A DNA stretch of 20,000 nt, from IMG/VR virus record IMGVR_UViG_3300033388_007403, one strand, 5' to 3'. The position numbers and the translations under genes were made by a program. Below, in pieces: positions 105 to 10,478 of this stretch. Origin of the DNA: an uncultured virus (IMG/VR IMGVR_UViG_3300033388_007403) (taxonomy: Duplodnaviria; Heunggongvirae; Uroviricota; Caudoviricetes). Under the pieces are notes generated by a model. That model was not told where the DNA came from. It saw only the letters and a list, made by a program, of their open reading frames with translations, and did not search any database. Within the stretch, counting starts at the first letter, position 1. Every line of letters starts with the position of its first letter.

Positions 105-188
105 TGCCCAGAAGAGGACTCGAACCTCCAAGCCAATTAAGGCATATGCCCCTCAAGCATACGTGTTTGCCGATTTCACCACCTGGGC
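105..188 (-). tRNA. tRNA-Leu(GAG)
   Basis: Cloverleaf GCCCAGG...TCTGGGC-A; anticodon arm TATGC-TTGAGGG-GCATA; long variable arm; GGTTCGAGTCC T arm. Confidence 0.92.
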
Positions 189-192
189 TTAA

Positions 193-266
193 TACTCCTG
201 GTGGGATTCGAACCCACAAACCCTGCGTTTTAATCGCAGTCCATAAGCCAATTCTGGTACAAGAGC
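193..266 (-). tRNA. tRNA with TAA (Leu) anticodon, short variable arm
   Basis: GCTCTTG/CAGGAGT-A; CTGCG-ATTAAAA-CGCAG; GTGGGTTCGAATCCCAC. Confidence 0.8.
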
Positions 267-365
267 TTAAATTATTTTTATTATTATTTATTCTATCTCC
301 ATCAATATAATCAACTTCAAGAAGAATTAATTCCCCAAACCATTTTTTAAAACCACTACCAAAAA
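267..365 (-). pseudogene. HNH endonuclease remnant
   Basis: Reads KKWFGELILLEVDYIDGDRINNNKNNL, matching the LELDHIDGD..NN..NL motif of the HNH at 1557-2246; no start codon of its own. Confidence 0.6.
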
Positions 366-439
366 TACCCAGAAGTGGATTTGAACCACCAAACACGACA
401 TTTTAAATCTCGCGGCTTTGCCAATTAGCCTACCTGGGC
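366..439 (-). tRNA. tRNA with TAA (Leu) anticodon, short variable arm
   Basis: GCCCAGG/TCTGGGT-A; CGAGA-TTTAAAA-TGTCG (one mismatch); GGTGGTTCAAATCCACT. Confidence 0.75.
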
Positions 440-642
440 TTTATTTTATCTCTATACCCAATCAGTGCTTTATATATTCTCAACTGGATCTCAGAATCAA
501 ATTCTAAAACACCACTCTCCACTACTTCTATCATTACTTCCCTGGATCTCTGAAAGATATCACCATCAGTGCTATCTTGCACTAGAGTTGTAGCCGCTGC
601 AGTTGTTAAATTATTAATATAATCTTGTTGTAGTTTATTCAA
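430..642 (-). CDS. hypothetical protein (70 aa)
   Basis: ORF overlapping the upstream ORF end; GGAG RBS-like sequence. Confidence 0.6.
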   Translation of the reverse strand: MNKLQQDYINNLTTAAATTLVQDSTDGDIFQRSREVMIEVVESGVLEFDSEIQLRIYKALIGYRDKIKPR

Positions 643-838
643 CTATTACATCCTCCATCTCTATTATCTCTTTTATATGAACCTCTAAACCACATGCATC
701 ACATGAAAGATAATGATGCTCATTTGATTCACACTCATCAAACAAATGAATATCTCTTTTACAGAAATACTTCTTAAACAACCACCAAAAGAATTTATTC
801 TGCAAAAAAGAAAAATATGTTATACCTCTATATTTCAT
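635..838 (-). CDS. hypothetical protein, possible Zn ligands (C..H, CDAC)
   Basis: 67-aa ORF in an overlapping operon arrangement. Confidence 0.65.
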   Translation of the reverse strand: MKYRGITYFSFLQNKFFWWLFKKYFCKRDIHLFDECESNEHHYLSCDACGLEVHIKEIIEMEDVIVE

Positions 839-1043
839 AATTTTTCACTCCATGGACAAAATAACAATCATCATTAATCTTATCTACTTTTACCCTCTTC
901 CAAGGATTTGTATATTTATTTTTCTTACCATTATCATAACGAATAAAAATGATATCCCCTACTTTGGGGAGAGATCTCTTACTCTTCACAATAGCTGCAC
1001 CATAAGGCATAGTACCTAATTTTACATATGGTAATTTAATCAT
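828..1043 (-). CDS. hypothetical protein (MIKLPYVKLG...)
   Basis: ORF; start moved to ATG 1043 because the longer call overlaps tRNA-Trp. Confidence 0.6.
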   Translation of the reverse strand: MIKLPYVKLGTMPYGAAIVKSKRSLPKVGDIIFIRYDNGKKNKYTNPWKRVKVDKINDDCYFVHGVKNYEI

Positions 1044-1080
1044 AATGAGTAAGTGAGATTTTTTCTCACTCTGGCGGAAA

Positions 1081-1152
1081 CAGGCACACAAGGATTCGAA
1101 CCCTGAACTTTTCTTTTGGAGAGAAAAATGATAGCCATTTCACCATGCGCCT
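1081..1152 (-). tRNA. tRNA-Trp(CCA)
   Basis: AGGCGCA/TGTGCCT-G; TTTCT-CTCCAAA-AGAAA. Confidence 0.9.
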
Positions 1153-1157
1153 TTAAA

Positions 1158-1231
1158 CGTATGCGGAAAGAATCGAACTCTCCTCATCGGGATTTGGAAA
1201 CCCAATCGCCTGCCTTGGAACATTCGCATAC
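1158..1231 (-). tRNA. atypical tRNA, CCA (Trp) anticodon
   Basis: GTATGCG/CGCATAC-G acceptor; GAGAG-TTCGATT-CTTTC T arm; loop TTCCAAA; aberrant D arm and A8. Confidence 0.65.
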
Positions 1232-1236
1232 AATAA

Positions 1237-1309
1237 TATCCCTGGAAGGACTCTAACCCTCATCTTCGCGTCCGTAGCGCGATGTTCTATACAATTATAC
1301 TACAAGGAT
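1237..1309 (-). tRNA. tRNA-Arg(ACG)
   Basis: ATCCTTG/CAGGGAT-A; TCGCG-CTACGGA-CGCGA; T loop variant TTAGAGT. Confidence 0.85.
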
Positions 1310-1314
1310 CTAAA

Positions 1315-1387
1315 TGCTCTCGCCCAGACTCAAACTGGGATCTTTTCTTTAGGAGAGAAATATTCTATTCTGTTATACTACGAGAGC
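1315..1387 (-). tRNA. tRNA-Arg(CCT)
   Basis: GCTCTCG/CGAGAGC-A; TTTCT-CTCCTAA-AGAAA. Confidence 0.88.
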
Positions 1388-1391
1388 TAAA

Positions 1392-1464
1392 TACACCTGA
1401 GAGGACTCGAACCTCCAACACTCAGTTTAGAAATCTGAGACTCTTCCATTTGAGCTACAGGTGC
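1392..1464 (-). tRNA. tRNA-Arg(TCT)
   Basis: GCACCTG/CAGGTGT-A; loop TTTCTAA; GGAGGTTCGAGTCCTCT. Confidence 0.9.
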
Positions 1465-1469
1465 TTTAA

Positions 1470-1555
1470 TACCGAAGACAGGAATCGAACCTGCACTCCC
1501 TTAACGGGAACAAGGACCTAAACCTTGCGTGTCTGCCTAGTTTCACCACTTCGGC
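1470..1555 (-). tRNA. tRNA-Leu(TAG)
   Basis: GCCGAAG/CTTCGGT-A; CAAGG-TTTAGGT-CCTTG; long variable arm. Confidence 0.92.
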
Positions 1556-1556
1556 T

Positions 1557-2246
1557 TTATTCTAACCATTTTCTGATGCAAGTATCACTTACACCATATT
1601 TTCTTCCTACAGCACAATAATTAGTATCTTTAACTTCTTTTAATAATTGTTCTTTAGAAGGTCTATTTTTAACTTTTTTTTCTACATTAGAATAGTCTCT
1701 AGTTCTATTAAAACAAGAGCTACACAATCCAGTCTTTGATTTCTTTTTTGTGCTCTTCCCGCACGAATCACAATAAAATAATATTTTTGGTATTATTTTT
1801 CTTCTTCTAAAAGTAGAAGTTTGACTATGACAATGAAGACATAATATTCTTAAATTAGACAATTCATTATTATAAATATCTCCATCAATATGATCTAATT
1901 CTAATGTAAGAGGTTCATTATTCCAAATTGGTAATTGACCACATTTAGAGCACTTATTGTCTATCAATCCCTCTCTTATTAATCTTTTTTTTAAGTAAGT
2001 AGATTTTACAACAACATCTTTTTTAAGATAAAAACTTAATGGCTCCTTATATTTATTAAAATTATAAGATTGAGTCCCAAAATGAGTTGTATCTAAATCC
2101 AATTCTTTTATTTTATTCTTAATAACCTTATGAGTTCCACCAGCTGGTCTTAATCCCAATTTTCTAATAACCTGGGTTACACTAAAGCTTTCTTTTACAG
2201 ATAAAATTATATCTTCATTAGTATATTCTCTATATTGTCTTACCAT
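1557..2246 (-). CDS. HNH homing endonuclease with Zn finger and C-terminal HTH
   Basis: CSKC...LELDHIDGDIYNNELSNLRILCLHCHSQT HNH motif; C-terminal AVGRKYGVSDTCIRKW HTH; GGGAG RBS. Confidence 0.9.
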   Translation of the reverse strand: MVRQYREYTNEDIILSVKESFSVTQVIRKLGLRPAGGTHKVIKNKIKELDLDTTHFGTQSYNFNKYKEPLSFYLKKDVVVKSTYLKKRLIREGLIDNKCSKCGQLPIWNNEPLTLELDHIDGDIYNNELSNLRILCLHCHSQTSTFRRRKIIPKILFYCDSCGKSTKKKSKTGLCSSCFNRTRDYSNVEKKVKNRPSKEQLLKEVKDTNYCAVGRKYGVSDTCIRKWLE

Positions 2247-2283
2247 TTTTATTCTCCCATATAAATATCATTCTATCTATATA

Positions 2284-2310
2284 TTCGATATAAAATGGCA
2301 GATACCTTTA
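2284..2310 (-). promoter_or_regulatory. TAAAGG-N16-TCGAA promoter-like motif upstream of the HNH gene
   Basis: Same bipartite motif with identical spacing at five sites. Confidence 0.6.
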
Positions 2311-2320
2311 ATTATTTCTG

Positions 2321-2347
2321 GAACTTTGCCAGTTTGCCCACCCCCGC
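2321..2347 (-). pseudogene. 5' fragment of a Leu-type tRNA
   Basis: GCGGGGGTGGGCAAACTGGCAAAGTTC (acceptor 5' strand plus D arm) ends abruptly at the HNH upstream region. Confidence 0.65.
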
Positions 2348-2459
2348 TTTAGTGCTACAAAAAATATTCTCCCACCTAGTCTACGCAGCAAGGATCTTGT
2401 AAAACTGATCAATTCTCCCAACTAATCCTGAAGGGTGGTTTTTCAGTGACGAATATTAA

Positions 2460-2530
2460 TGCGCCTGCCCAGACTCGAACTGAGAAAGCTAGCTTGGAAG
2501 GCTAGCGTGTTACCATTACACCACAGGCGC
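2460..2530 (-). tRNA. tRNA-Gly(TCC)
   Basis: GCGCCTG/CAGGCGC-A; CTAGC-CTTCCAA-GCTAG. Confidence 0.92.
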
Positions 2531-2536
2531 TTTAAA

Positions 2537-2644
2537 GAATTGGTAGGGACGAAAGGTCGTGGGCTTTGACCCCACCTACCACACCACAGTCCAGAATCCA
2601 GTTTACTGTGATACTGTTTTCCTAGTGTACACCTACCCATTCTA
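2537..2644 (-). ncRNA. candidate structured RNA with T-arm-like hairpin
   Basis: Terminal stem AGAATGGGTAGG/CCTACCAATTCT; CACAGT/ACTGTG hairpin; GTGGG-GTCAAAG-CCCAC. Confidence 0.5.
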
Positions 2645-2645
2645 A

Positions 2646-2717
2646 AGTGGATGGTGGGAATCGAACCCACACATTACGGTGTTGCAAACCGCACCCTTGC
2701 CATTCGGGATCACCCAC
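2646..2717 (-). tRNA. tRNA-Cys(GCA)
   Basis: GTGGGTG/CATCCAC-T (U73); GCGGT-TTGCAAC-ACCGT. Confidence 0.88.
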
Positions 2718-2722
2718 ATAAG

Positions 2723-2795
2723 GACCAAAGACGGGATTTGAACCCGTACCGAAAGATTCACAGTCTTCCATGCTACCAATTACACCACCTTGGAC
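2723..2795 (-). tRNA. tRNA-His(GTG)
   Basis: GAAGA-CTGTGAA-TCTTT; G-1/C73. Confidence 0.88.
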
Positions 2796-2894
2796 ATCTA
2801 CGGTTTACTTTTAGTTATTGTGTAGGGAGTCTCACCGTTTAAAAACAACCCTTGCAGTTTATTCCCATTTGGCCAAATAGGACCGCAACTTACG

Positions 2895-2978
2895 TGAGAG
2901 CACTCGGAGTCGAACCGAGACACCCTTGCGGGAACGTTTTTACAGACCGCCGAGGTTCACCATGTCCCCTATACTCCC
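2895..2978 (-). tRNA. tRNA-Tyr(GTA)
   Basis: GGGAGTA/TGCTCTC-A; loop CTGTAAA; long variable arm CCC-GCAA-GGG. Confidence 0.88.
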
Positions 2979-2987
2979 TTTTGTAAA

Positions 2988-3061
2988 TACCCCTGAGTGG
3001 ATTCGAACCACCAAGACTTTCGGTTAAGAGCCGAATGCTTTGCCTAATAAGCTTCAGAGGC
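2988..3061 (-). tRNA. tRNA-Lys(CTT)
   Basis: GCCTCTG/CAGGGGT-A; TTCGG-CTCTTAA-CCGAA. Confidence 0.9.
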
Positions 3062-3066
3062 TTGAA

Positions 3067-3219
3067 TATAAGACAAAAATTTATGCAGTTAATATCACCG
3101 GGTATCTATCTCAGTTATATTAAATACATGAATCTTTTTCAAAACATATTATACTAAACATGTCTTCATGTCAAAGCTAGATACCATAGCTCCTAGTATA
3201 AAATATTTCTAGTCTTATA
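3067..3219 (-). ncRNA. candidate rod-shaped ncRNA
   Basis: Three nested inverted repeats (TATAAGAC/GTCTTATA, GGTATCTA/TAGATACC, ACATGAA/TTCATGT) separated by unpaired bubbles. Confidence 0.5.
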
Positions 3220-3220
3220 A

Positions 3221-3305
3221 TGAGAGTGGAGGGATTCGAACCCACACGTCCGTTAGGATCCTGGTTAAAAGCCAGGTACAGACTGCCAATATCTGCAACA
3301 CTCCC
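3221..3305 (-). tRNA. type II (long variable arm) tRNA with TTT (Lys) anticodon
   Basis: GGGAGTG/CACTCTC-A; CCTGG-CTTTTAA-CCAGG; variable arm ATCCTAACGGACGT. Confidence 0.85.
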
Positions 3306-3306
3306 T

Positions 3307-3606
3307 CTACTTCTTTGCTAACTGCTCATCTTCTATCTGGATCTTAACTTCTTTCAACTCATCCCGATATTTAGTAATAATCTCTAAAAGTCCTTGATAT
3401 AATCTGTAAGATATTTCAGGAAACATTTTAATCTTACTCATATTACTATCTAATATAGAAGCCATAATCACACCTTTATGACTAGTTATACTGATGTTCT
3501 CGACATTATCTAATAATCCATTACAATCATCAATTTCATCAGCAATTTCTAGCCTTTGTTTTTTATTATTTTTACACGCAAAAAAACCAGATGGTTTATG
3601 TCCCAT
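3307..3606 (-). CDS. hypothetical protein (99 aa)
   Basis: ORF overlapping the end of the upstream HNH ORF. Confidence 0.65.
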   Translation of the reverse strand: MGHKPSGFFACKNNKKQRLEIADEIDDCNGLLDNVENISITSHKGVIMASILDSNMSKIKMFPEISYRLYQGLLEIITKYRDELKEVKIQIEDEQLAKK

Positions 3607-4111
3607 TACTACTCTTCAGAATTCTATTACTTATATTTAATTTATCACCAAACGGTGCTACTGTTTTAATTATCCCATTATTAGAATGGGGAAGGGAGAG
3701 TATCTTACTACCCTTCCTATTATTACATTGATCACACATAGTCTGAAGATTATCCAGATGATTAGCTCCACCTTTTGACTTAGGCATTATATGATCCTTT
3801 GTCATAAGCCTTGCTTTTCCTTCAAATATAGCATAAAGATTAAAATGAGTACTATCTCGATCAGATCTACTTGTAAAAGTATCAGCACTGATTATAGTAC
3901 CTTCTAACCCACATCTTGTACATCTCCTGGATCTTTTAAAACACTGAAGTCGTAATGAGTCAATCCTTATAAGGTGCAACGTTCCTTTAATATCTACTTC
4001 AATAGAACCAGCATTAGGATCAACTAGATCTAATACACTTTCAGGTTCATATGACTGTAAGTGGATATATCCATTATACAATATTTCTTCATCAATTATC
4101 TTCAGCATCAT
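3596..4111 (-). CDS. HNH endonuclease
   Basis: CTRC...MTKDHIMPKSKGGANHLDNLQTMCDQCNNRKG HNH motif. Confidence 0.88.
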   Translation of the reverse strand: MMLKIIDEEILYNGYIHLQSYEPESVLDLVDPNAGSIEVDIKGTLHLIRIDSLRLQCFKRSRRCTRCGLEGTIISADTFTSRSDRDSTHFNLYAIFEGKARLMTKDHIMPKSKGGANHLDNLQTMCDQCNNRKGSKILSLPHSNNGIIKTVAPFGDKLNISNRILKSSNGT

Positions 4112-4122
4112 TTCCCTTTCAA

Positions 4123-4196
4123 TGGGTCTGACAGGAATCGAACCTGCGACAAATCGGTTAAAAGCCGAATGCTCTACCTAACTGAGCTACAGACCC
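4123..4196 (-). tRNA. tRNA-Lys(TTT)
   Basis: GGGTCTG/CAGACCC-A; loop CTTTTAA; canonical D and T arms. Confidence 0.93.
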
Positions 4197-4418
4197 TTAT
4201 AGGCTATCTGTTCCACTTTTTGTTCTACAATGTGGACACACTGGTTTTGCCTTCACTGAGATATCCCATCCACCCAATTCATCAACAGGAATATGACTCA
4301 GAGCTTGATCTCTGTTCAGATAATCATCTCCAATTAATAAGCTGTCCTGGATATTACACTCACAACATTCAAGTTCTAATGTGAACCTAGTAACTTGTTT
4401 TTTTTCTATTTTAAACAT
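4197..4418 (-). CDS. small Zn-binding hypothetical protein
   Basis: CCEC...CPHC motifs. Confidence 0.65.
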   Translation of the reverse strand: MFKIEKKQVTRFTLELECCECNIQDSLLIGDDYLNRDQALSHIPVDELGGWDISVKAKPVCPHCRTKSGTDSL

Positions 4419-4770
4419 TTATTCCTTCTTCTACTCTTTTCCAATTTACATGTTTCCAACCACCACCTTTAGATAATTGCAGCAAGTTCTTAGCTCTGTC
4501 TTTTCCAAAACTAAGGATCCTATCAGCATGTTCATCTGAACATAGCTTTTTCGGTGCTATATATGAATTTTCTTCTGAATGCTTCAGTAACTCAGCTATC
4601 TCTGGGCTGATATACTCTTTCTTGCCATTACCATTCTTCTTTTCTTTCTTTTCGGTGCTGGGCTTTTCTTTTTTCCGCGAAGAAAAATCAAATCCACATC
4701 CTGGACAGATTCTTGTTCTAACACCTAATTCAAGGCTACACTCTGGACAAGTTTTTTTACCTTTTGGCAT
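4411..4770 (-). CDS. Zn-ribbon hypothetical protein (MPKGKKTCPEC...CPGC)
   Basis: N-terminal double CxxC; AAGGAAG upstream of ATG 4770. Confidence 0.75.
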   Translation of the reverse strand: MPKGKKTCPECSLELGVRTRICPGCGFDFSSRKKEKPSTEKKEKKNGNGKKEYISPEIAELLKHSEENSYIAPKKLCSDEHADRILSFGKDRAKNLLQLSKGGGWKHVNWKRVEEGINV

Positions 4771-4832
4771 TCTTCTTCCTTTCAATAAATATTAACACCT
4801 TATTAATGTTATATTTTTTCACTCTGGCGGAA

Positions 4833-4906
4833 TGAGTCCTCCTGGATTCGAACCAGGAAATCGCCAAGTTATGAGCTTGGTGCTCTGCCAGTTGAGCTAA
4901 GGACCC
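4833..4906 (-). tRNA. tRNA(CAT), probably Ile2 or elongator Met
   Basis: GGGTCCT/AGGACTC-A; CCAAG-CTCATAA-CTTGG. Confidence 0.88.
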
Positions 4907-4909
4907 AAG

Positions 4910-4985
4910 TGGAGATGAGTGGAATCGAACCACCGACACCCGCCTCTTCAGGGCAGTGCTCTACCAAAAACTGAGCTACATCTCC
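4910..4985 (-). tRNA. tRNA-Phe(GAA)
   Basis: GGAGATG/CATCTCC-A; CTGCC-CTGAAGA-GGCGG. Confidence 0.9.
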
Positions 4986-4990
4986 AATAA

Positions 4991-5066
4991 TAGCGGGAGC
5001 AGGATTCGAACCTGCGTCAAACGGCTTATGAGACCGTGCTGGAACCAAACTCCAGTCCACCCCGCG
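4991..5066 (-). tRNA. initiator-like tRNA-Met(CAT)
   Basis: CGCGGGG start with a C1 mismatch; ACGGT-CTCATAA-GCCGT. Confidence 0.85.
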
Positions 5067-5073
5067 ATAAAAA

Positions 5074-5144
5074 AGCCGATGATAGGAGTCGAACCCACAT
5101 TTCCTGAGTACAAAACAGGAGTATTGCCATTATACTACATCGGC
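5074..5144 (-). tRNA. tRNA-Thr(TGT)
   Basis: GCCGATG/CATCGGC-T; loop TTTGTAC. Confidence 0.88.
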
Positions 5145-5154
5145 GTTTAAAAAA

Positions 5155-5248
5155 TTCCAGATACATTAGAGATAAAAGTGATTTCCAATTTCCCCAGTGG
5201 GGATGATAAGATTCGAACTTATGATAACTTTTATCATTCAACCTGGAT
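5155..5248 (-). ncRNA. Y RNA (YrlA)-like RNA, copy 1, reduced permuted tRNA module
   Basis: TCCAGGTTGA-N9-GTTATC...GTATCTGGA; GATAAAAGT/ACTTTTATC stem; T arm ATAAG-TTCGAAT-CTTAT precedes a TCCCC/GGGGA hairpin and a D-like AATTGG. Confidence 0.7.
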
Positions 5249-5250
5249 AA

Positions 5251-5323
5251 TGGATACATACGGGACTCGAACCCGTAATTCCTGGGTGCAAACCAAGTGT
5301 GTTCCCAATTACACCAATGACCC
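5251..5323 (-). tRNA. tRNA-Ala(TGC), bulged acceptor stem
   Basis: G3:U70; CTTGG-TTTGCAC-CCAGG; one extra T in the acceptor 3' strand. Confidence 0.82.
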
Positions 5324-5395
5324 ATAGTCCTTTGCGGTAGACCTATATTATCTACCCTTCAAGTGATCAACTAAGGCTATTTTCAAACAAAGGAA

Positions 5396-5466
5396 TGGAG
5401 ATACCGAGAATCGAACTCGGATTTGGACATTGCAAGTGTCCTGTGCTCCCGTTACACTATACCCCC
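5396..5466 (-). tRNA. tRNA-Ala(TGC)
   Basis: GGGGGTA/TATCTCC-A; GGACA-CTTGCAA-TGTCC. Confidence 0.9.
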
Positions 5467-5551
5467 AACTAATTAATCATTCATCATCATAAAAACAAAA
5501 ATTAAAATAATAATCCAAAATACTGACATCTCTCCCCCCCTAAATCTCTAT

Positions 5552-5725
5552 TTATTTCACTCTCCTAAAGAGATCCACAGTAGCAGTAATCGGTGCTAGA
5601 GCTGTATGAAATAAGAATTTGATAAACAAAAATGGTCCTACAGGATCAGCAGTATAAAAATATTCATCTGCTTTCCATTTTCCCCATTCCAAACACATCC
5701 ATGCATAACATACTTCCATAATCAT
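5552..5725 (-). CDS. hypothetical protein (57 aa, MIMEVCYAWMCLEWGKWKADEY...)
   Basis: Manually read ORF below the track cutoff; purine-rich RBS. Confidence 0.5.
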   Translation of the reverse strand: MIMEVCYAWMCLEWGKWKADEYFYTADPVGPFLFIKFLFHTALAPITATVDLFRRVK

Positions 5726-5790
5726 TACTCTTTCCTTTCTTTTTTACTTTACTAATGAGACTTTTTCTTACTCTGGCGGAATTAAAAAAA

Positions 5791-5919
5791 TGTGGATACG
5801 GTGTTAGAGAACATATTAAAACTCTACCAATTGAGATATACAGTGCCAGGCACTGCACCAGGACTCGAACCTAGATACTTTGATTTAACAGTCAGATAAC
5901 GTTCACTATTCAACCCACT
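5791..5919 (-). ncRNA. Y RNA (YrlA)-like RNA, copy 2, full permuted tRNA module
   Basis: GTGGGTTGA-N9-GTTATCT...GTATCCAC; order is T arm (CTAGGTTCGAGTCCTGG), then closed acceptor (TGCAGTGC/GCACTGTA), then D arm (CTCAATTGGTAGAG). Confidence 0.8.
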
Positions 5920-5923
5920 TTAA

Positions 5924-5996
5924 TCTCTCTAGAAGGATTCGAACCTTCACCCCACGGCCCCAAACCGCGCGTGCAACCAAGTAACACTTTAGAGAG
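5924..5996 (-). tRNA. tRNA-Pro(TGG)
   Basis: CTCTCTA/TAGAGAG-A; CGCGG-TTTGGGG-CCGTG. Confidence 0.9.
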
Positions 5997-6001
5997 TAAA
6001 A

Positions 6002-6070
6002 TAACGGATACGTTAATACAAAAAAGTTTTAGCCATTTCAAGTAGATAACTTTCTCATTTCAACCCGTTA
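6002..6070 (-). ncRNA. Y RNA-like RNA, copy 3 (minimal, stem only)
   Basis: TAACGGGTTGA-N9-GTTATCT...GTATCCGTTA. Confidence 0.7.
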
Positions 6071-6172
6071 AAATTAAGTAATAAGACAGAATCCAGCTCT
6101 GACATACACTTTCTTATGAAAGTGTGTTTTAATAAAAGATTAAATTAAACTATTATTACTTAATATATTAAA

Positions 6173-6247
6173 TAGCGGAGGATGGATTCGAACCACCGAC
6201 TTTTTGGTTATGAGCCAAACGAGCTGACCAGACTGCTCTACCCCGCG
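6173..6247 (-). tRNA. tRNA-fMet(CAT)-like
   Basis: CGCGGGGTAGAGCAGTCTGGTCAGCTCG; TTTGG-CTCATAA-CCAAA. Confidence 0.9.
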
Positions 6248-6283
6248 ATAAAAATATCTTATAAATAATTAAGGCTGACAATC

Positions 6284-6305
6284 TAACCAGACTGCTCTAC
6301 CCCGT
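6284..6305 (-). pseudogene. 5' fragment duplicate of tRNA-fMet
   Basis: CGGGGTAGAGCAGTCTGGT identical to the 5' part of the tRNA at 6173-6247. Confidence 0.7.
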
Positions 6306-6355
6306 AAATAGCGATATTCGGAATCGAACCGAAGACTCAGACGTATGATTTTTAA

Positions 6356-6427
6356 TAGTAGGGACTGGATTTGAACCAGCATTATCCTTCGTATGAAAAA
6401 GGAGCATTGTCATTATGCTACCCTACC
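6356..6427 (-). tRNA. tRNA(CAT) nested inside the insertion
   Basis: GGTAGGG/CCCTACT-A; CCTTT-TTCATAC-GAAGG; GCTGGTTCAAATCCAGT. Confidence 0.82.
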
Positions 6428-6430
6428 TTT

Positions 6431-7081
6431 TTAAAACAACCATTTATCAGAATTATCTTTTACAAACTCTTTAATCGAACCAAAAATTTGTTGAGCAATT
6501 CTTGTATTATTTATAGATACTGTGCATATACCATAAGGATGTTTTACTTTTGTATTATCATAATATTTACTTTTAAGTGTGCATTTTCTCAAACAACTGA
6601 CAGGTAGTTTTAATTGATTGCACCAATATGACTGAATATCTTCTAATGTTAGATTATTATTAAGATAGTATTGAAAAGTAATGCTAAAATCATTATCTTG
6701 AACATTAAAATATTTACGAAGAAATTTAACAAAATAAGAAATCATTTTAATATCACTATTTGTTAATCTTACATAATTTTTACATTTAGTTCCTTCTCCC
6801 CAGAATAAAGCACATCCAAATGCATATCCTTTATCTTCATTATGAATTTTTTCTCTTCCTTGAGCTTGATACTCTCTTCTTTTGTTCCTAAAATTTTCAG
6901 AATATTTTATATAAGATTTATCTCTCAGTTGTAGTTTCTCTCTTTGCTCATTTGTTAGATCAATATCTCTAACCCACAAACTTACTGAACTCTTAGAAAC
7001 TTTAACACTTTTTGCTATATCATTTAAAGATAATCCTTGTTGCCTTAATTTTCTACATTCTTCTTTTTCTTTTAATTTCAT
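6431..7081 (-). CDS. HTH plus LAGLIDADG-like putative homing endonuclease
   Basis: N-terminal LRQQGLSLNDIAKSVKVSKSSVSLW HTH; GCALFWGEGTK...LTNSDIKMISYFVKFL LAGLIDADG-like segment. Confidence 0.75.
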   Translation of the reverse strand: MKLKEKEECRKLRQQGLSLNDIAKSVKVSKSSVSLWVRDIDLTNEQREKLQLRDKSYIKYSENFRNKRREYQAQGREKIHNEDKGYAFGCALFWGEGTKCKNYVRLTNSDIKMISYFVKFLRKYFNVQDNDFSITFQYYLNNNLTLEDIQSYWCNQLKLPVSCLRKCTLKSKYYDNTKVKHPYGICTVSINNTRIAQQIFGSIKEFVKDNSDKWLF

Positions 7082-7118
7082 TATAAAACCCTTTATTAAT
7101 AGAACTCATATATATAAG

Positions 7119-7145
7119 TTCGACAATAAGGGTTAAATTCCTTTA
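7119..7145 (-). promoter_or_regulatory. TAAAGG-N16-TCGAA promoter-like motif
   Basis: Recurrent motif upstream of ORF 6431-7081. Confidence 0.6.
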
Positions 7146-7210
7146 ATTATTTTTAAAAATATGAAATCTGTGTGTTAACCGAACTATACCATATCGCTTT
7201 AAAGACCAAC

Positions 7211-7423
7211 AAGTGGATACATTATTAACATTGGACGCTCTGAAGAGCTAAAGTAATCGGTTAGAAGATTTTAAAGTCTCTTTTTTCTACTTTGTACCGG
7301 GGGACTCCACTGATCTCTTCTTTCTTAAGTTCCGTTGTTGGTCTAACTTCCTTTAAGAATTTCCTCAGCTTGTTTTTCCCAGTTTCCAATCAGGATAGAT
7401 AACCAATATTACTCAACCCACTT
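7211..7423 (-). ncRNA. Y RNA-like RNA, copy 4, ~150-nt non-tRNA module
   Basis: AAGTGGGTTGA-N9-GTTATCT...GTATCCACTT; AATATTGG/CCAATGTT covarying stem. Confidence 0.7.
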
Positions 7424-7425
7424 AA

Positions 7426-7497
7426 TAGCCTGAAGCGGTTACGATCCGCCTTCTTCTCATTGAAAGTGAGATATCCTATCCAGTAGACGACCAGGCC
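7426..7497 (-). tRNA. tRNA-Glu(TTC)
   Basis: TCGTCTA D arm; TCTCA-CTTTCAA-TGAGA; T loop variant ATCGTAA. Confidence 0.85.
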
Positions 7498-7551
7498 ATA
7501 ATGTTCTTTTTTGATGAAGCAAGAGAAACTGAATAAGAACCTGCTCTCAAA

Positions 7552-7623
7552 TACCCTGCTGAAGAATCGGACCCCAATCGTAACCTTGAGAGAGTTACAT
7601 CCTACCGATTAGAAGAGCAGGGC
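7552..7623 (-). tRNA. tRNA-Glu(CTC)
   Basis: GCCCTGC/GCAGGGT-A; TAACT-CTCTCAA-GGTTA. Confidence 0.82.
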
Positions 7624-7632
7624 TTATTATTT

Positions 7633-7661
7633 ACTATACCATATTTTTACTCACTTGTCAA
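7633..7661 (-). promoter_or_regulatory. sigma70-type promoter inside the array
   Basis: TTGACA-17 nt-TATAGT with extended TG. Confidence 0.75.
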
Positions 7662-7677
7662 GTAAAAAATAATTTAA

Positions 7678-7761
7678 CAGATGGTAAAGGAATCGAACCT
7701 TCAACCCTATCAAGGCTGGCATGGTTTTCAAGACCAATTATCCCCATGGATGCTACCATCT
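7678..7761 (-). tRNA. tRNA-Ser(TGA), shortened D arm
   Basis: AGATGGT/ACCATCT-G; loop CTTGAAA; long variable arm. Confidence 0.82.
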
Positions 7762-7794
7762 ATTTTAACGGAAACAAAGTTTTTTACAAAAAAA

Positions 7795-7821
7795 TAAAGA
7801 ATATTCTCTCCGTTTATCGAA
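7795..7821 (+). promoter_or_regulatory. TAAAGA-N16-TCGAA promoter-like motif
   Basis: Same motif, oriented with the plus-strand pseudogene. Confidence 0.6.
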
Positions 7822-7852
7822 TATATAATATAGAATACATAAGAAGAAATAT

Positions 7853-8198
7853 ATGAAAAGATCTTATACTAAAACAAATTGTGAACAATGTGGTAAAGAA
7901 TATAAAAAAAGAAACATTTGACTTTAAAAGAACAAAGCATAATTTTTGTTCTAAAAAATGTAGTGGTAAATATAATACTATTACAAATACTATTAAAACT
8001 TTATATGGAATAGTTCATTTTAAACCTATTTATGATCAAACAAAATTAAATAAAATTCAAAATAAAGATACTGAAAAATTGAAAATAGCAGCTAATAAAA
8101 ATATCAATTTAATAGTCATTCCTGACTTAGTATCTAGTGATAAAATACTTAAACAAGCTTTTGATGATGTAAAAGATATAATAAATAAATTACTTTAG
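7853..8198 (+). pseudogene. frameshifted, truncated Zn-finger endonuclease-like gene
   Basis: MKRSYTKTNCEQCGKEYKK in one frame continues as ...HNFCSKKCSGKYN...YGIVHFKPIY...NINLIVIP in another; the shift falls at an A run near 7904-7910. Confidence 0.65.
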
Positions 8199-8288
8199 CG
8201 GTGAGTATAGGATTTGAACCTATGCTACCCTTTTGAGGTAGACCACTGATTAGCAATCAGGTGCAATACCAAGCTCTGCCAACTCACC
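8199..8288 (-). tRNA. tRNA-Ser(GCT)
   Basis: GGTGAGT/ACTCACC-G; CTGA-TTGCTAA-TCAG; long variable arm. Confidence 0.92.
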
Positions 8289-8291
8289 AAA

Positions 8292-8438
8292 AAGAGTATG
8301 ATCAATAATTCCCTCAAATTATTTTCAAGTAAACGATATCCAGAAAGGGACTGGACTCTCGTCACGACGGTATCTATGTGCTAGCCGAGATCCGTTGATC
8401 GTAACACTCAATCGGTGCTACCTTCTTTACACTCTTCT
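8292..8438 (-). ncRNA. candidate multi-stem ncRNA
   Basis: GATCAA/TTGATC closes three hairpins (ACGG..ATCT/AGAT..CCGT; ACGA..TCCAG/CTGGA..TCGT; AATAATT/AATTATT). Confidence 0.5.
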
Positions 8439-8641
8439 TTCTTTCATTCAGTGCTAAAGGTTTTCATTAACTGGTATATTAATAAAAATTAACTCTAACT
8501 CTGAATGAAATATTTATAAGGATCTAAATTCACTCAAAAAATTGTAGGATTAGCTTGAGGTAAGAATTCGCTACCTGCACATCAAAACAAATCTTCAAAA
8601 AATTAATTTAAAATATTTAGGTTAACAATTTAGATCCTTAA

Positions 8642-8712
8642 CCCTGTATAGCAGTATCGATCTGCTGCTTCAACATAGACAATGTTGTGTGCTTCCATTA
8701 CACCAATACAGG
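8642..8712 (-). tRNA. tRNA-Asp(GTC)
   Basis: CCTGTAT/ATACAGG-G; CAACA-TTGTCTA-TGTTG; AGCAG-ATCGATA-CTGCT. Confidence 0.82.
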
Positions 8713-8718
8713 TAAAAT

Positions 8719-8789
8719 ACGGATACAGTGTTAAAAAGAGGTAAAATTAAAATTTAAAGGTTTTAGATAACTCTTTTCAGTCAACCCGT
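8719..8789 (-). ncRNA. Y RNA-like RNA, copy 5 (minimal)
   Basis: ACGGGTTGA-N9-GTTATCT...AACACTGTATCCGT; AAAAGAG/CTCTTTT stem. Confidence 0.7.
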
Positions 8790-8797
8790 TTTTTATA

Positions 8798-9541
8798 CTA
8801 TTTTAACCATTTTCTTATTGTGTTATCAGATACCCCATATTTCCTACCAACAGCACAATAATTAGTTTCTTTAATTTCTTTCAAAAGTCCTTCTTTTGAA
8901 GGTCTTTCAACTTTTCTTCTAACTATATGCCAACATTTTTGAGAACAATATTTTGTTTCCCTATTTTTTCCAACTTTTTTTGCTTCAAATTCTTTTTTAC
9001 ACATAGGACAAATTTTTATTTTTCTCTTTTTCTTAGGTCGTCCTTTAGATTTTTTAAACCATATATCTTTTAATTTTTTTATCCATTCTTCATCTAAATA
9101 GGCGATCTCAGACTCGAACTGAGGACCTTCTGAATGTAAACCAGAAATGCTTCCAACTGCACCAATCGCCTGTTTTTTAACTAATTCTTTTCTCCAATAG
9201 ATATCACTCTCCCATATATCTATTACTTTCCATCCATTTTTTTCCAAAAATATTCTTTTATTAATGTCTCTTGTTATATTGAATTGTTGAGATTTTGTTA
9301 AATTATCTTTCTGATATAGTTTCGGATTAGCATGCCAATAATCTCCCATAACTCTAAATACAATCTTTTTTTCAGGGAATACATAATCACAAATATATCT
9401 TTGGATAGGATATTGGAAATAAATTATTGCGTTTTCATCATCACATATTGAAAAAATAGTTTTAATGTCTTCTGGGAATTTTACTCCGTAGCCAAGAGAA
9501 GTTAAAATATCTCTAAATTCTCTTTCTGGTTTGGTCCACAT
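8798..9541 (-). CDS. Vsr/DUF559-like endonuclease with Zn finger and HTH, containing an in-frame tRNA
   Basis: TKPE...QYPIQRYICDY...GDYWH...GWKVIDIWESD; CPMC...YCSQKC; AVGRKYGVSDNTIRKW. Confidence 0.8.
   Translation of the reverse strand: MWTKPEREFRDILTSLGYGVKFPEDIKTIFSICDDENAIIYFQYPIQRYICDYVFPEKKIVFRVMGDYWHANPKLYQKDNLTKSQQFNITRDINKRIFLEKNGWKVIDIWESDIYWRKELVKKQAIGAVGSISGLHSEGPQFESEIAYLDEEWIKKLKDIWFKKSKGRPKKKRKIKICPMCKKEFEAKKVGKNRETKYCSQKCWHIVRRKVERPSKEGLLKEIKETNYCAVGRKYGVSDNTIRKWLK
9099..9171 (-). tRNA. tRNA-Val(TAC) embedded in a CDS
   Basis: AGGCGAT/ATCGCCT-A; TCTGG-TTTACAT-TCAGA; CTCAG-TTCGAGT-CTGAG. Confidence 0.88.
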
Positions 9542-9591
9542 TTTAGAACTATTCTTTATATTTTTTGAAAAGTAAGTGCAAATTAAAAAAT

Positions 9592-9725
9592 TGTGGATAC
9601 GGTGTTAGAAAACATAATTTTTTACTGTGCTAACCATTACACTAATCCCTGATTATTCGGGGATGGAGGAATCGAACCCCCACTAAATCTCCAATAGATA
9701 GATAACGTTTTCAAATCAACCCACT
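9592..9725 (-). ncRNA. Y RNA (YrlA)-like RNA, copy 6, full permuted tRNA module
   Basis: GTGGGTTGA-N9-GTTATCT...AACACCGTATCCAC; T arm GGGGGTTCGATTCCTCC, then ATCCCCGA-ATAA-TCAGGGAT, then D arm GTGTAATGGTTAGCAC. Confidence 0.8.
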
Positions 9726-9728
9726 TAA

Positions 9729-9854
9729 TGGATGTAGTTGGGTTCGAACCAACGACCTCTCCGTTATATTGTATAAATTATTTTTTCAACAAAAATAATT
9801 TAAATGTTATAGAATAATTGCAGCGGAGTGCTCAACCAACTGAGCTTCACATCC
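9729..9854 (-). tRNA. intron-containing tRNA-Ile (probably GAT), intron ~9768-9820
   Basis: GGATGTG/TACATCC-A; CTCCG-CTG[53 nt]ATAA-CGGAG. Confidence 0.82.
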
Positions 9855-9967
9855 AGAAACACAAGGGGCTTTATCTAGTGCTGGGTGAGCACATAGATCC
9901 CTCCCCTTGTGTGTAATTATAAAAGATTTTTGTGTGGCTTCTGCCACCCCTATTAACTTATAAAAGA

Positions 9968-10042
9968 AGAGCAATGAACAGGTTATACTCCTGTCTCTGT
10001 AGCGATAAAGCCACTATCCTAATTTACTAGACGATCATTCTC
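9968..10042 (-). pseudogene. degenerate tRNA-like gene
   Basis: Glu/Asp-like D arm TCGTCTAGT...AGGAT; GTGGC-TTTATC-GCTAC with a 6-nt loop; ACAGG/CCTGT T stem; bulged acceptor. Confidence 0.55.
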
Positions 10043-10044
10043 AA

Positions 10045-10115
10045 CTCCGGAACCAGGATTCGAACCTGGAATAGCTGATTAACAGTCAGTCGTGATACCA
10101 TTTCACCATTCCGGA
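10045..10115 (-). tRNA. tRNA-Asn(GTT)
   Basis: TCCGGAA/TTCCGGA-G; ACTGA-CTGTTAA-TCAGC. Confidence 0.92.
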
Positions 10116-10116
10116 A

Positions 10117-10240
10117 TTATATTAACCATTTTCTTATAGAGTTATCACTTACACTATATTTTTTACCTGTTCCTACATATCCTAATTCTTTTACTTCTTT
10201 TTTTAATGTTTCCATTAGAGGTCTAACTACTTTTCTTCTT
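10117..10240 (-). pseudogene. C-terminal HTH remnant of an endonuclease
   Basis: RRKVVRPLMETLKKEVKELGYVGTGKKYSVSDNSIRKWLI, similar to the C-termini of ORFs 1557-2246 and 8798-9541. Confidence 0.75.
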
Positions 10241-10254
10241 GAATACTGATTACA

Positions 10255-10281
10255 TTCGATACAAAAAGGAAGATATCTTTA
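10255..10281 (-). promoter_or_regulatory. TAAAGA-N16-TCGAA promoter-like motif
   Basis: Recurrent motif upstream of the endonuclease remnant. Confidence 0.5.
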
Positions 10282-10306
10282 AGTATTATGGTTCGAATGT
10301 TCAAAA

Positions 10307-10379
10307 CAAGGGAAGCAGGACTCGAACCTGCAACCTTCTGGCTCAAAACCAGATGTTCCACCAGTTGAACTATTCCCCT
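10307..10379 (-). tRNA. tRNA-Gln(TTG)
   Basis: AGGGGAA/TTCCCTT-G; TCTGG-TTTTGAG-CCAGA. Confidence 0.88.
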
Positions 10380-10449
10380 ATTAAAAAGGATAACTCTATT
10401 AAATTTTTAAAGATCAGGGTCTTGGATATTACCTCTACACCACAAGACT

Positions 10450-10478
10450 ATTATAACATATAACTATTCACTTATCAA
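10450..10478 (-). promoter_or_regulatory. sigma70-type promoter at the head of the tRNA array
   Basis: TTGATA-17 nt-TATAAT with extended TG. Confidence 0.75.

Follow-up and report, generated by a model that had tools for sequence, protein, structure and literature searches.

What are the small, structured RNA elements that recur between the tRNA genes of the uncultured virus recorded in IMG/VR as IMGVR_UViG_3300033388_007403? In the 20,000 nucleotides (nt) of this record analysed here (the window), six such elements share one closing stem, hereafter the handle, and differ in the domain that the handle closes. We suggest, from comparative sequence analysis, that they are probably Y RNA genes of a huge (megaphage-class) bacteriophage, and that they form a variant set which has been relocated away from the gene of Ro60, the RNA-quality-control protein that binds Y RNAs.

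The handle motif GGTTGA-N9-GTTATC has six exact matches in the window, every one on the minus strand, which is also the strand of the tRNAs. With up to two mismatches allowed the number rises to eight, against a mean of 1.52 in shuffled sequence (largest 5), and none of 200 shuffles reached eight. GTATC lies 33–177 nt downstream of the 5' motif in all six cases and is itself followed by the complement of the three bases preceding GGTTGA; a second helix, again in 6/6 elements, joins the N9 segment to the 3' side through 6–9 consecutive pairs. The six minus-strand elements that a sequence-only reading had placed here are thereby confirmed, with exact motif and 3' half in each, and our coordinates, defined by the outer pair of the closing stem, agree with the earlier ones to within 2 nt:

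5157..5246, minus strand: E1, handle (outer stem CCA/UGG) with a reduced tRNA-like module (exact motif, fold, 30 bits with the covariance model R1 described below)
5792..5918, minus strand: E2, handle with a full tRNA-like module (Rfam YrlA model at 24.1 bits, fold)
6004..6068, minus strand: E3, minimal member, handle with a ~20-nt A-rich loop (exact motif, fold)
7213..7421, minus strand: E4, handle with a ~170-nt structured distal domain (exact motif, fold)
8719..8789, minus strand: E5, handle with a 39-nt A/U-rich loop (exact motif, fold, R1 at 36 bits)
9593..9724, minus strand: E6, handle with a full tRNA-like module (exact motif, fold)

The family to which these elements belong numbers about 35 copies, spread over 8 contigs of a single huge-phage lineage; without exception they occupy the tRNA strand and the same inter-tRNA slots. 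A metagenome scan yielded four contigs with the same elements in syntenic tRNA arrays (L164–L167), a fifth match being due to chance. E6 is found after Ile(gat) or an intron-bearing tRNA, E5 after Val, E4 after Glu(ttc), E3 after Met-Met, E2 after Pro/Ile(tat) and E1 after Ala, and these slots are conserved despite an identity of only 35–59% between contigs in the neighbouring RecA/DnaB-like ATPase. Homologues of this ATPase occur on contigs of up to 386,529 nt. The single window ATPase, used as a query for related loci, returned nothing, and an alignment-based query was needed to find three IMG/VR records (G001–G003, 298–548 kb) with the same ATPase and tRNA-array synteny. Their arrays hold 2, 6 and 6 copies of the RNA, with A[C/T]ATC as the 3' motif and N9 or N10 spacing. 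It was because of this 3' motif that scans of IMG/VR with combined 5' and 3' patterns had missed these true relatives; the 44 loci returned by those scans, none with a complementary outer stem, were chance matches, mostly in coding sequence. Likewise, the 5' motif alone gave 120 IMG/VR loci, none with a matching 3' half and all due to chance, the genome-contig collection gave two motif matches, both due to chance, and blastn and tblastn against the phage collection returned only tRNA matches or distant ones (<30% identical).

The handle is built of two helices. The lower stem is 6 bp long, with three covarying outer pairs followed by invariant G-C, G-U and U-A, and continues as GGU-U-GA opposite Y-G-U-AUC(C/U) with a one-base bulge. 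This can be read either as a bulged U on the 3' side, with U6-G and G7-Y pairs, or as a bulged U6 on the 5' side, in which case G7 pairs with the pyrimidine that immediately precedes AUC. This latter reading suits the distant relatives and RNAs of the CGA type as well, and recalls the bulged-C helix that is the Ro60 site of vertebrate Y RNAs (PMC4726728). Above the lower stem follow an asymmetric internal loop and a freely covarying upper stem of 6–11 bp, and then the invariant GUUAUC, the G of which closes the stem and the UUAUC(U) of which opens the loop domain. GUUAUC is present in 35/35 copies and the N9 spacing in 24/35. Of the two shared features first listed, the spacing is constant in the window and varies from N8 to N11 across the family, and the 3' GTATC, present in 6/6 window elements, is specific to the window subgroup, the distant relatives having A[C/T]ATC instead.

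Both helices covary. Among 17 copies the upper helix (P2) is paired in 152/170 cells, compared with 113 on average and at most 124 when partners are shuffled (n=1000) and with 82–92 when the register is slid, and the lower helix (P1) is paired in 102/102 cells, with changes on both sides in 3/6 columns. The covariance model R1 was seeded on four in-register E3-type copies, because in some copies MAFFT had shifted the 3' side of the upper helix by one column. With default filters it recovered 23 copies over their full length, every one of them on the tRNA strand and no others elsewhere, E3 as seed scoring 89 bits and E6, matched over its full length, 27.5 bits; with filters off it returned 13 rows, five of them good, and it misses the long E2- and E4-type members. 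Aligned to the covariance model, the 23 copies show 96.4% of cells paired vs 80.8% in shuffles and both-side changes in 11/17 pairs, with 0/500 shuffles reaching any of five measures, figures which favour the model because the alignment was fitted to it. The covariation first noticed between the N9 segments and their 3' partners is confirmed, and both helices show it (17–23 copies); the six pairings listed in its support are correct. As in Y RNAs, the two ends pair over a long stretch that an internal loop or bulge interrupts. TTGA...TATC was rejected as a promoter, given the covarying helices and a spacing of ~8–10 nt instead of 17; inspected by eye, neither a K-turn nor a loop E fitted the lower stem.

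Distal to the handle lies a permuted tRNA, a short loop or a large module, much as described from the sequence alone, except that the module of the longest element measures ~170 nt and not 150. The tRNA-like modules had been likened to YrlA, and this is borne out by full-length alignment to the YrlA model (RF02553): E2 aligns over model positions 1–114, and its orthologues score 24.6–37.2 bits. YrlA-like RNAs directly beside the Ro60 genes of other phages score 28–38 bits, the same range as the window family. Judged by the tRNA-like features that define YrlA in a structure preprint (10.1101/312249), here a T arm that comes before the D arm in the 5' to 3' direction, an acceptor stem that is closed, the UA linker and an anticodon-stem equivalent leading into the handle, the domain is present in E2 and E6 and partly present in E1, which has no D stem, and E3, E4 and E5 are without it. 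E6 runs from an extra hairpin at the variable-loop position through the T arm, a closed acceptor hairpin and the UA linker to the D arm, and has orthologues in L166, L165, L172 and L173. The extra hairpin of E2 carries the loop CUGUUAA, like the anticodon loop of tRNA-Asn.

Two of the simpler members, E1 and E5, appear reduced from such modules. In E1 the T arm is followed by a short hairpin resembling an acceptor stem, and single-stranded AAUUGG stands where the D arm would be; its L172 orthologue retains the D arm and scores 34 bits with YrlA. The E5 orthologues of L172 and L173 still possess a T-arm-like hairpin, so that E5 looks like a decayed tRNA-like module. As judged from these orthologous sequences, the loop modules turn over with time. 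E3, with orthologues in L165, L166, L167, L171, L172 and L173, is YrlB-like in size. Five contigs conserve the distal domain of E4, in which some changes are compensatory (both-side changes in 6/44 predicted alifold pairs with three orthologues and in 5/25 with five); no Rfam family matched it at E<=10.

Further to that, the handle resembles RNAs that accompany Ro60 genes in other phages. Ro60 is common in IMG/VR, from which 107 Ro60 relatives were found and 80 loci kept, each covering the gene ±500 nt. The pattern GNCGA-N7-13-GTTATC has 47 matches in these loci, 47/47 on the Ro60 strand, against 1 in the reversed-sequence control; 40 lie in the upstream flank and 36 have N9 spacing, and 25/80 loci hold at least one, often in tandem. 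This indicates that the window motif is the usual phage Y RNA handle with its C changed to U. Bridging forms, GGGTCGA-N10-GTTATC...TTATCC(C/A), occur in two Ro60-encoding phages, in one case on the Ro60 strand and ~0.9 kb downstream of the gene. Several of the Ro60-flank RNAs continue into T arms, and the tRNA-like forms among them match YrlA at 29–38 bits. The loop domain of the window family also opens with UUAUC on its 5' side, and the spacing is that of CGA-N9-GUUAUC. UUAUC in this position is highly conserved in nematode stem-bulge RNAs (sbRNAs) and present in vertebrate Y RNAs (PMC4450293, PMC4726728), and short Ro60-flank forms match the nematode sbRNA model RF01656 at 25.7–38.1 bits (gathering score 38), so that phage Y RNAs have the UUAUC motif and its spacing in common with animal ones, a correspondence not stated in the parts of the literature consulted.

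The Rfam tRNA model also matches over some Ro60-flank Y RNAs (L203:206-303, L211:143-272, L223:216-335 and L228:251-337), with insertions of 20–61 nt in the anticodon region. In L203 at least, the match covers the 5' strand of the handle and the T arm of the Y RNA and takes its D arm from upstream sequence, so that intron-bearing tRNAs can be called in error where tRNA-like Y RNAs stand in tandem.

Ro60 itself is encoded in the lineage. Genes for TROVE proteins of about 575–592 amino acids (aa) are present in 3/3 related records carrying the RNA family, with TROVE E values from 2e-24 to 4e-31. The one protein checked for it also has a vWA_Ro60 domain, and the match of the G001 protein to Xenopus Ro60 has an E value of 1.9e-107. 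TROVE was found in 0/5 unrelated viral contigs of 187–252 kb, and TROVE proteins have been reported from a small subset of jumbo phages (PMC7824862). The absence of Ro60 from phage and host, together with a lack of binding, had been named as what would tell against Y RNAs; instead, all three large related records have it and none of the five controls does. The Ro60 of the lineage forms a distinct subfamily, with at least 61% identity internally and at most 47% to other phage Ro60s, and the UGA variant of the handle and this subfamily occur together. In the three related genomes GGNCGA-N8-10-GTTATC has 0 matches, i.e. there is no canonical CGA-type handle, YrlA matches all stay below the threshold, and the surroundings of the Ro60 genes hold nothing recognisable; all sub-threshold YrlA matches fall in or within 3 kb of the tRNA-array loci, and R1 matches are likewise confined, except for one weak match (E 0.57). 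The expanded phage Y RNA repertoire among tRNAs that had been envisaged is thus supported by Ro60 in 3/3 relatives, by the shared handle and by the YrlA alignment, with Ro60 binding as a predicted property.

In L174 (G002) and L176 (G001), the Ro60 gene has a conserved AAA-ATPase gene upstream of it and a gene for an ankyrin-repeat protein downstream. In G001, where the Ro60 ORF lies at L176:859-2613 and encodes 584 aa, it has its own promoter, TTGACA-17-TATAAT, read by eye. The G001 protein resembles Xenopus and human Ro60 (E 1e-107 and 1e-103, respectively) more closely in sequence than Deinococcus Rsr (E 7e-78).

Several observations count against the assignment to Y RNAs. U stands for C in 35/35 family copies and the base after GA is variable; GGUUGA being present in 35/35, neither GNCGAA(N0-1)G or CGAA nor the vertebrate GGUCCGA motif is found, and the "GNCGAA-like" motif first proposed stands as a likeness only, the C of CGAA being U throughout. 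This U variant was not convincingly seen beside Ro60 in the 80 loci, where five GNTGA matches, three of them mid-locus, had scattered spacings, and in Yrl2 of the Thermus phage phiLo a C8U change in the CGAA motif raises the dissociation constant (Kd) about threefold (PMC12135203). No score reaches the YrlA gathering score of 69 bits, and E3 and E5 have no match to the Y RNA, YrlB or sbRNA models of Rfam at E<=10. In G001–G003 the RNA copies lie 44–51 kb from Ro60, and none is within the ~4 kb typical of known Y RNAs. Ro60 is absent from the window, as had been noted, and from L164–L167 and the array loci; the contigs with the closest ATPase relatives measure 93,640 nt and 386,529 nt, and no contig of either length is among the best 120 of 1163 Ro60 homologues, a weak negative because the lists are incomplete. 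RtcB, the usual repair partner, was found in 0/3 related records, which leaves the earlier suggestion of a part in RNA repair without support.

How the RNAs might be made is suggested by their surroundings:

105..10380, minus strand: host tRNA array, with 31 ARAGORN tRNAs and 30 Rfam tRNA matches
10450..10478, minus strand: sigma-70-like promoter, TTGATA-17-TATAAT with TG extension (11/12 matches; consensus match only), upstream of the first tRNA of the array
7633..7661, minus strand: second sigma-70-like promoter, TTGACA-17-TATAGT (11/12 matches; consensus match only), upstream of tRNA-Glu(ctc), tRNA-Glu(ttc) and E4

The array is interrupted by HNH, Vsr-like and other homing-endonuclease open reading frames (ORFs). 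The elements lie 3–12 nt from tRNA ends, and U-rich tracts follow most of them. E6 starts 4 nt past the intron-bearing tRNA at 9729–9854, E4 3 nt past tRNA-Glu(ttc) and E2 5 nt past tRNA-Pro, with a T-run after both E6 and E2; E5 ends 6 nt before tRNA-Asp and E3 7 nt before tRNA-Pro, and E1 sits between tRNA-Ala and tRNA-Thr. Co-transcription with the tRNAs is proposed on two grounds, this tight packing and the two sigma-70-like promoters. The RNAs would then arise by read-through of the tRNA operon from these promoters and would be released by the trimming of flanking tRNAs, through RNase P at the 5' end of the next tRNA and RNase Z or E at the 3' end of the previous one. The handle is predicted to dock a phage-encoded Ro60, and the interchangeable loop domains (three YrlA-type mimics of the tRNA elbow, two bare loops and one domain of ~170 nt) may act as adaptors, giving each ribonucleoprotein (RNP) a different partner or a different gate on the cavity of Ro60.

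The same facts can be arranged differently. Since the canonical C is missing in 35/35 copies and the genes do not adjoin Ro60, the C-to-U change and the relocation could mark a switch to another partner, leaving a scaffold of Y RNA descent that has given up Ro60. Candidates for the new partner would be an RNA-binding protein of the phage and a host enzyme of tRNA processing or decay which recognises GGUUGA/UUAUC, and the RNAs could serve as stable decoys or sponges for tRNA-binding factors such as anticodon nucleases; tRNA-elbow mimics could titrate tRNA-binding proteins, and the E2-type hairpin copies the tRNA-Asn anticodon loop CUGUUAA. We consider this unlikely, in view of an intact Ro60 kept by the lineage with no other Y RNA candidate in three genomes, of a handle whose two blocks and spacing are otherwise those of Ro60-adjacent RNAs, and of a distinct Ro60 subfamily that accompanies the handle variant. 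Less probable again is a purely cis-acting role, in which the handle would punctuate the tRNA operon for processing or stability, as a nuclease entry site (e.g. for RNase III) or an exonuclease barrier, and the modules would be functionless tRNA debris. Such a role would suit the distance of 3–12 nt to tRNA ends, the U-rich tracts and the decay of modules in the window, where E1 has lost the D stem and E5 the T-arm-like hairpin. Yet a barrier or cleavage site needs neither an invariant single-stranded UUAUC nor a fixed bulged lower stem, nor six syntenic paralogues kept across contigs in which the adjacent ATPase is 35–59% identical, and debris would sit poorly with the preserved T/D elbow nucleotides and UA linker of E2 and E6, or with the compensatory changes in the conserved 170-nt domain of E4.

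Permuted tRNA genes occur in some algae and archaea, and E2 and E6 hold every arm of the cloverleaf in permuted order, including an anticodon-like hairpin, beside a tRNA with a 53-nt insertion at 37/38. That the elements are functional circularly permuted tRNA genes, from which the handle is removed and the ends joined into working tRNAs, is nevertheless scarcely credible. Their acceptor stem is closed by a 3–10-nt loop, with no discriminator, CCA or spacer for RNase P/Z, the "anticodon" hairpin has only 3–4 bp and is not conserved among orthologues, 3/6 members have no tRNA part at all, and the RtcB ligase occurs in 0/3 relatives. With neither processable acceptor ends nor a normal anticodon arm, this candidate was rejected. 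We therefore return to Y RNA genes as the probable identity of the six elements.

A more far-reaching version of the Y RNA reading is tempting but doubtful. In this lineage the Ro60/Y RNA system may have been turned into an orthogonal hub with several adaptors, by moving the genes into a tRNA operon where they would be made and trimmed like tRNAs, by multiplying them into six syntenic paralogues with different cargo domains and by changing CGA to UGA alongside a divergent Ro60, thus avoiding cross-talk with the Rsr/Y RNA of the host. Were this true, the CGA-N9-GUUAUC of phage and animal Y RNAs would be an ancient bipartite mark of Ro60/Y RNA partnership. Apart from this version, the UUAUC block and its spacing in phage Y RNAs tie prokaryotic, viral and animal Y RNA families more closely together than the published bacterial consensus does. 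The family also provides a natural specificity variant for asking which Ro60 residues read the conserved C, and six ready-made adaptors (three tRNA mimics and one new 170-nt domain among them) with which to probe Ro60 RNP tethering during infection. Similar Y RNA sets have probably been missed in phage and bacterial genomes, because surveys seek CGAA near Ro60 and discard overlaps with tandem tRNAs.

The array holds a number of other unusual features. The tRNA at 9729–9854 (minus strand) has a 53-nt A/U-rich insertion in the anticodon loop and matches the Rfam tRNA model at 49.9 bits over 126 nt; in intron mode ARAGORN calls it tRNA-Cys(GCA) with an intron at 37/38, unusual for a bacterial virus, and a similar tRNA match of 116 nt lies at L166:3422-3537. 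A 247-aa ORF at 8798–9541 (minus strand) runs through tRNA-Val (9099–9171). Its N-terminal half is Vsr/DUF559-like and its C-terminal part consists of a zinc ribbon and a tail that is near-identical to the C-terminus of the HNH ORF at 1557–2246; it may represent two endonuclease gene fragments around tRNA-Val or a homing endonuclease gene in which tRNA-Val is embedded. Met-like tRNA fragments, first a 3' half and then a 5' half, lie at 6249–6355 and 7100–7212 (both minus strand) around a 216-aa ORF (6431–7081) resembling a helix-turn-helix (HTH) endonuclease, and show how permuted T-arm/D-arm units could arise by rearrangement of the array. The gap of ~350 nt between tRNA-Ser(gct) and tRNA-Asp (8289–8641, minus strand) is G+C-richer and hairpin-rich, has no Rfam match and may be a structured RNA. 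The sequence at 7679–7761 (minus strand), matched only by the Rfam tRNA-Sec model at 33.7 bits, is likely a tRNA-Ser(TGA) missed by ARAGORN, and is syntenic with tRNA-Ser(tga) of L166.

Among known systems, the bacterial and mycobacteriophage YrlA and YrlB RNAs (RF02553; PMC4201824; 10.1101/312249) are alike in having paired ends that form a long stem bearing the Ro60 site and, in YrlA, a tRNA-mimic effector in which the T arm precedes the D arm, the acceptor stem is closed, a UA linker is present and the variable loop differs in size. There too, short loop-only members are found beside tRNA-like ones and several paralogues occur per genome. The window family differs from them in having GGUUGA where YrlA and YrlB have GNCGAA(N0-1)G, in lying inside a tRNA operon, 44–51 kb from Ro60 in the relatives rather than within 4 kb of it, and in the size of the set, six members including one with a non-tRNA domain of ~170 nt. 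Chen et al. (2014; PMC4201824) defined the motif GNCGAA(N0-1)G and reported phage YrlAs, only within 4 kb of Ro60, and discarded matches overlapping tandem tRNAs; Y RNA genes in a tRNA array would have been filtered out by both rules. We found no description of UGA-motif Y RNAs or of Y RNA sets inside phage tRNA operons in the literature consulted, and the supplementary tables of Chen et al. might list cases. Y RNAs in a Listeria phage have been the subject of speculation (PMC12282133).

The Thermus phage phiLo offers another phage Ro60 (phiRo60) with phage Y-like RNAs, Yrl1 and Yrl2, for which co-opting of the host PNPase has been proposed (PMC12135203). These RNAs are bound by the phage Ro60. 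Unlike the window family they have the CGAA motif and are encoded immediately upstream of its gene, not in a tRNA array; phiRo60 is absent from the PDB sequence matches to the lineage Ro60 at E<=0.001. From animal Y RNAs and sbRNAs (PMC4726728, PMC4450293) the window family differs in its bulged base, which is U, in the change of CGA to UGA, in having no RNA polymerase III (Pol III) context and in loops that are tRNA mimics or a large domain, and the Rfam Y_RNA and sbRNA models do not match it. Shared with them are a lower stem with a single bulged pyrimidine and a bulge on the opposite strand, an upper stem of conserved length, UUAUC at the 5' start of the variable loop domain and a U-rich 3' tail.

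Further counterparts are the Ro60-adjacent phage Y RNAs (IMG/VR L187–L255; e.g. L193, L203, L260 and L261). These keep the canonical C and stand directly beside Ro60, mostly upstream, and their short forms match RF01656, whereas E3 and E5 of the window match nothing. Taken together, the UGA handle, the tRNA-operon home and the six syntenic paralogues, with the ~170-nt domain among them, mean that the family is best filed as a separate variant within the Y RNAs. What it has in common with the Ro60-adjacent RNAs is the 5' GG(G)-Y-CGA-N9-GUUAUC plan of lower and upper stem, an arrangement in tandem sets of 2–4 (with 1–4 RNAs preceding Ro60) and, in some such as L193 and L203, the same kind of tRNA-like module.

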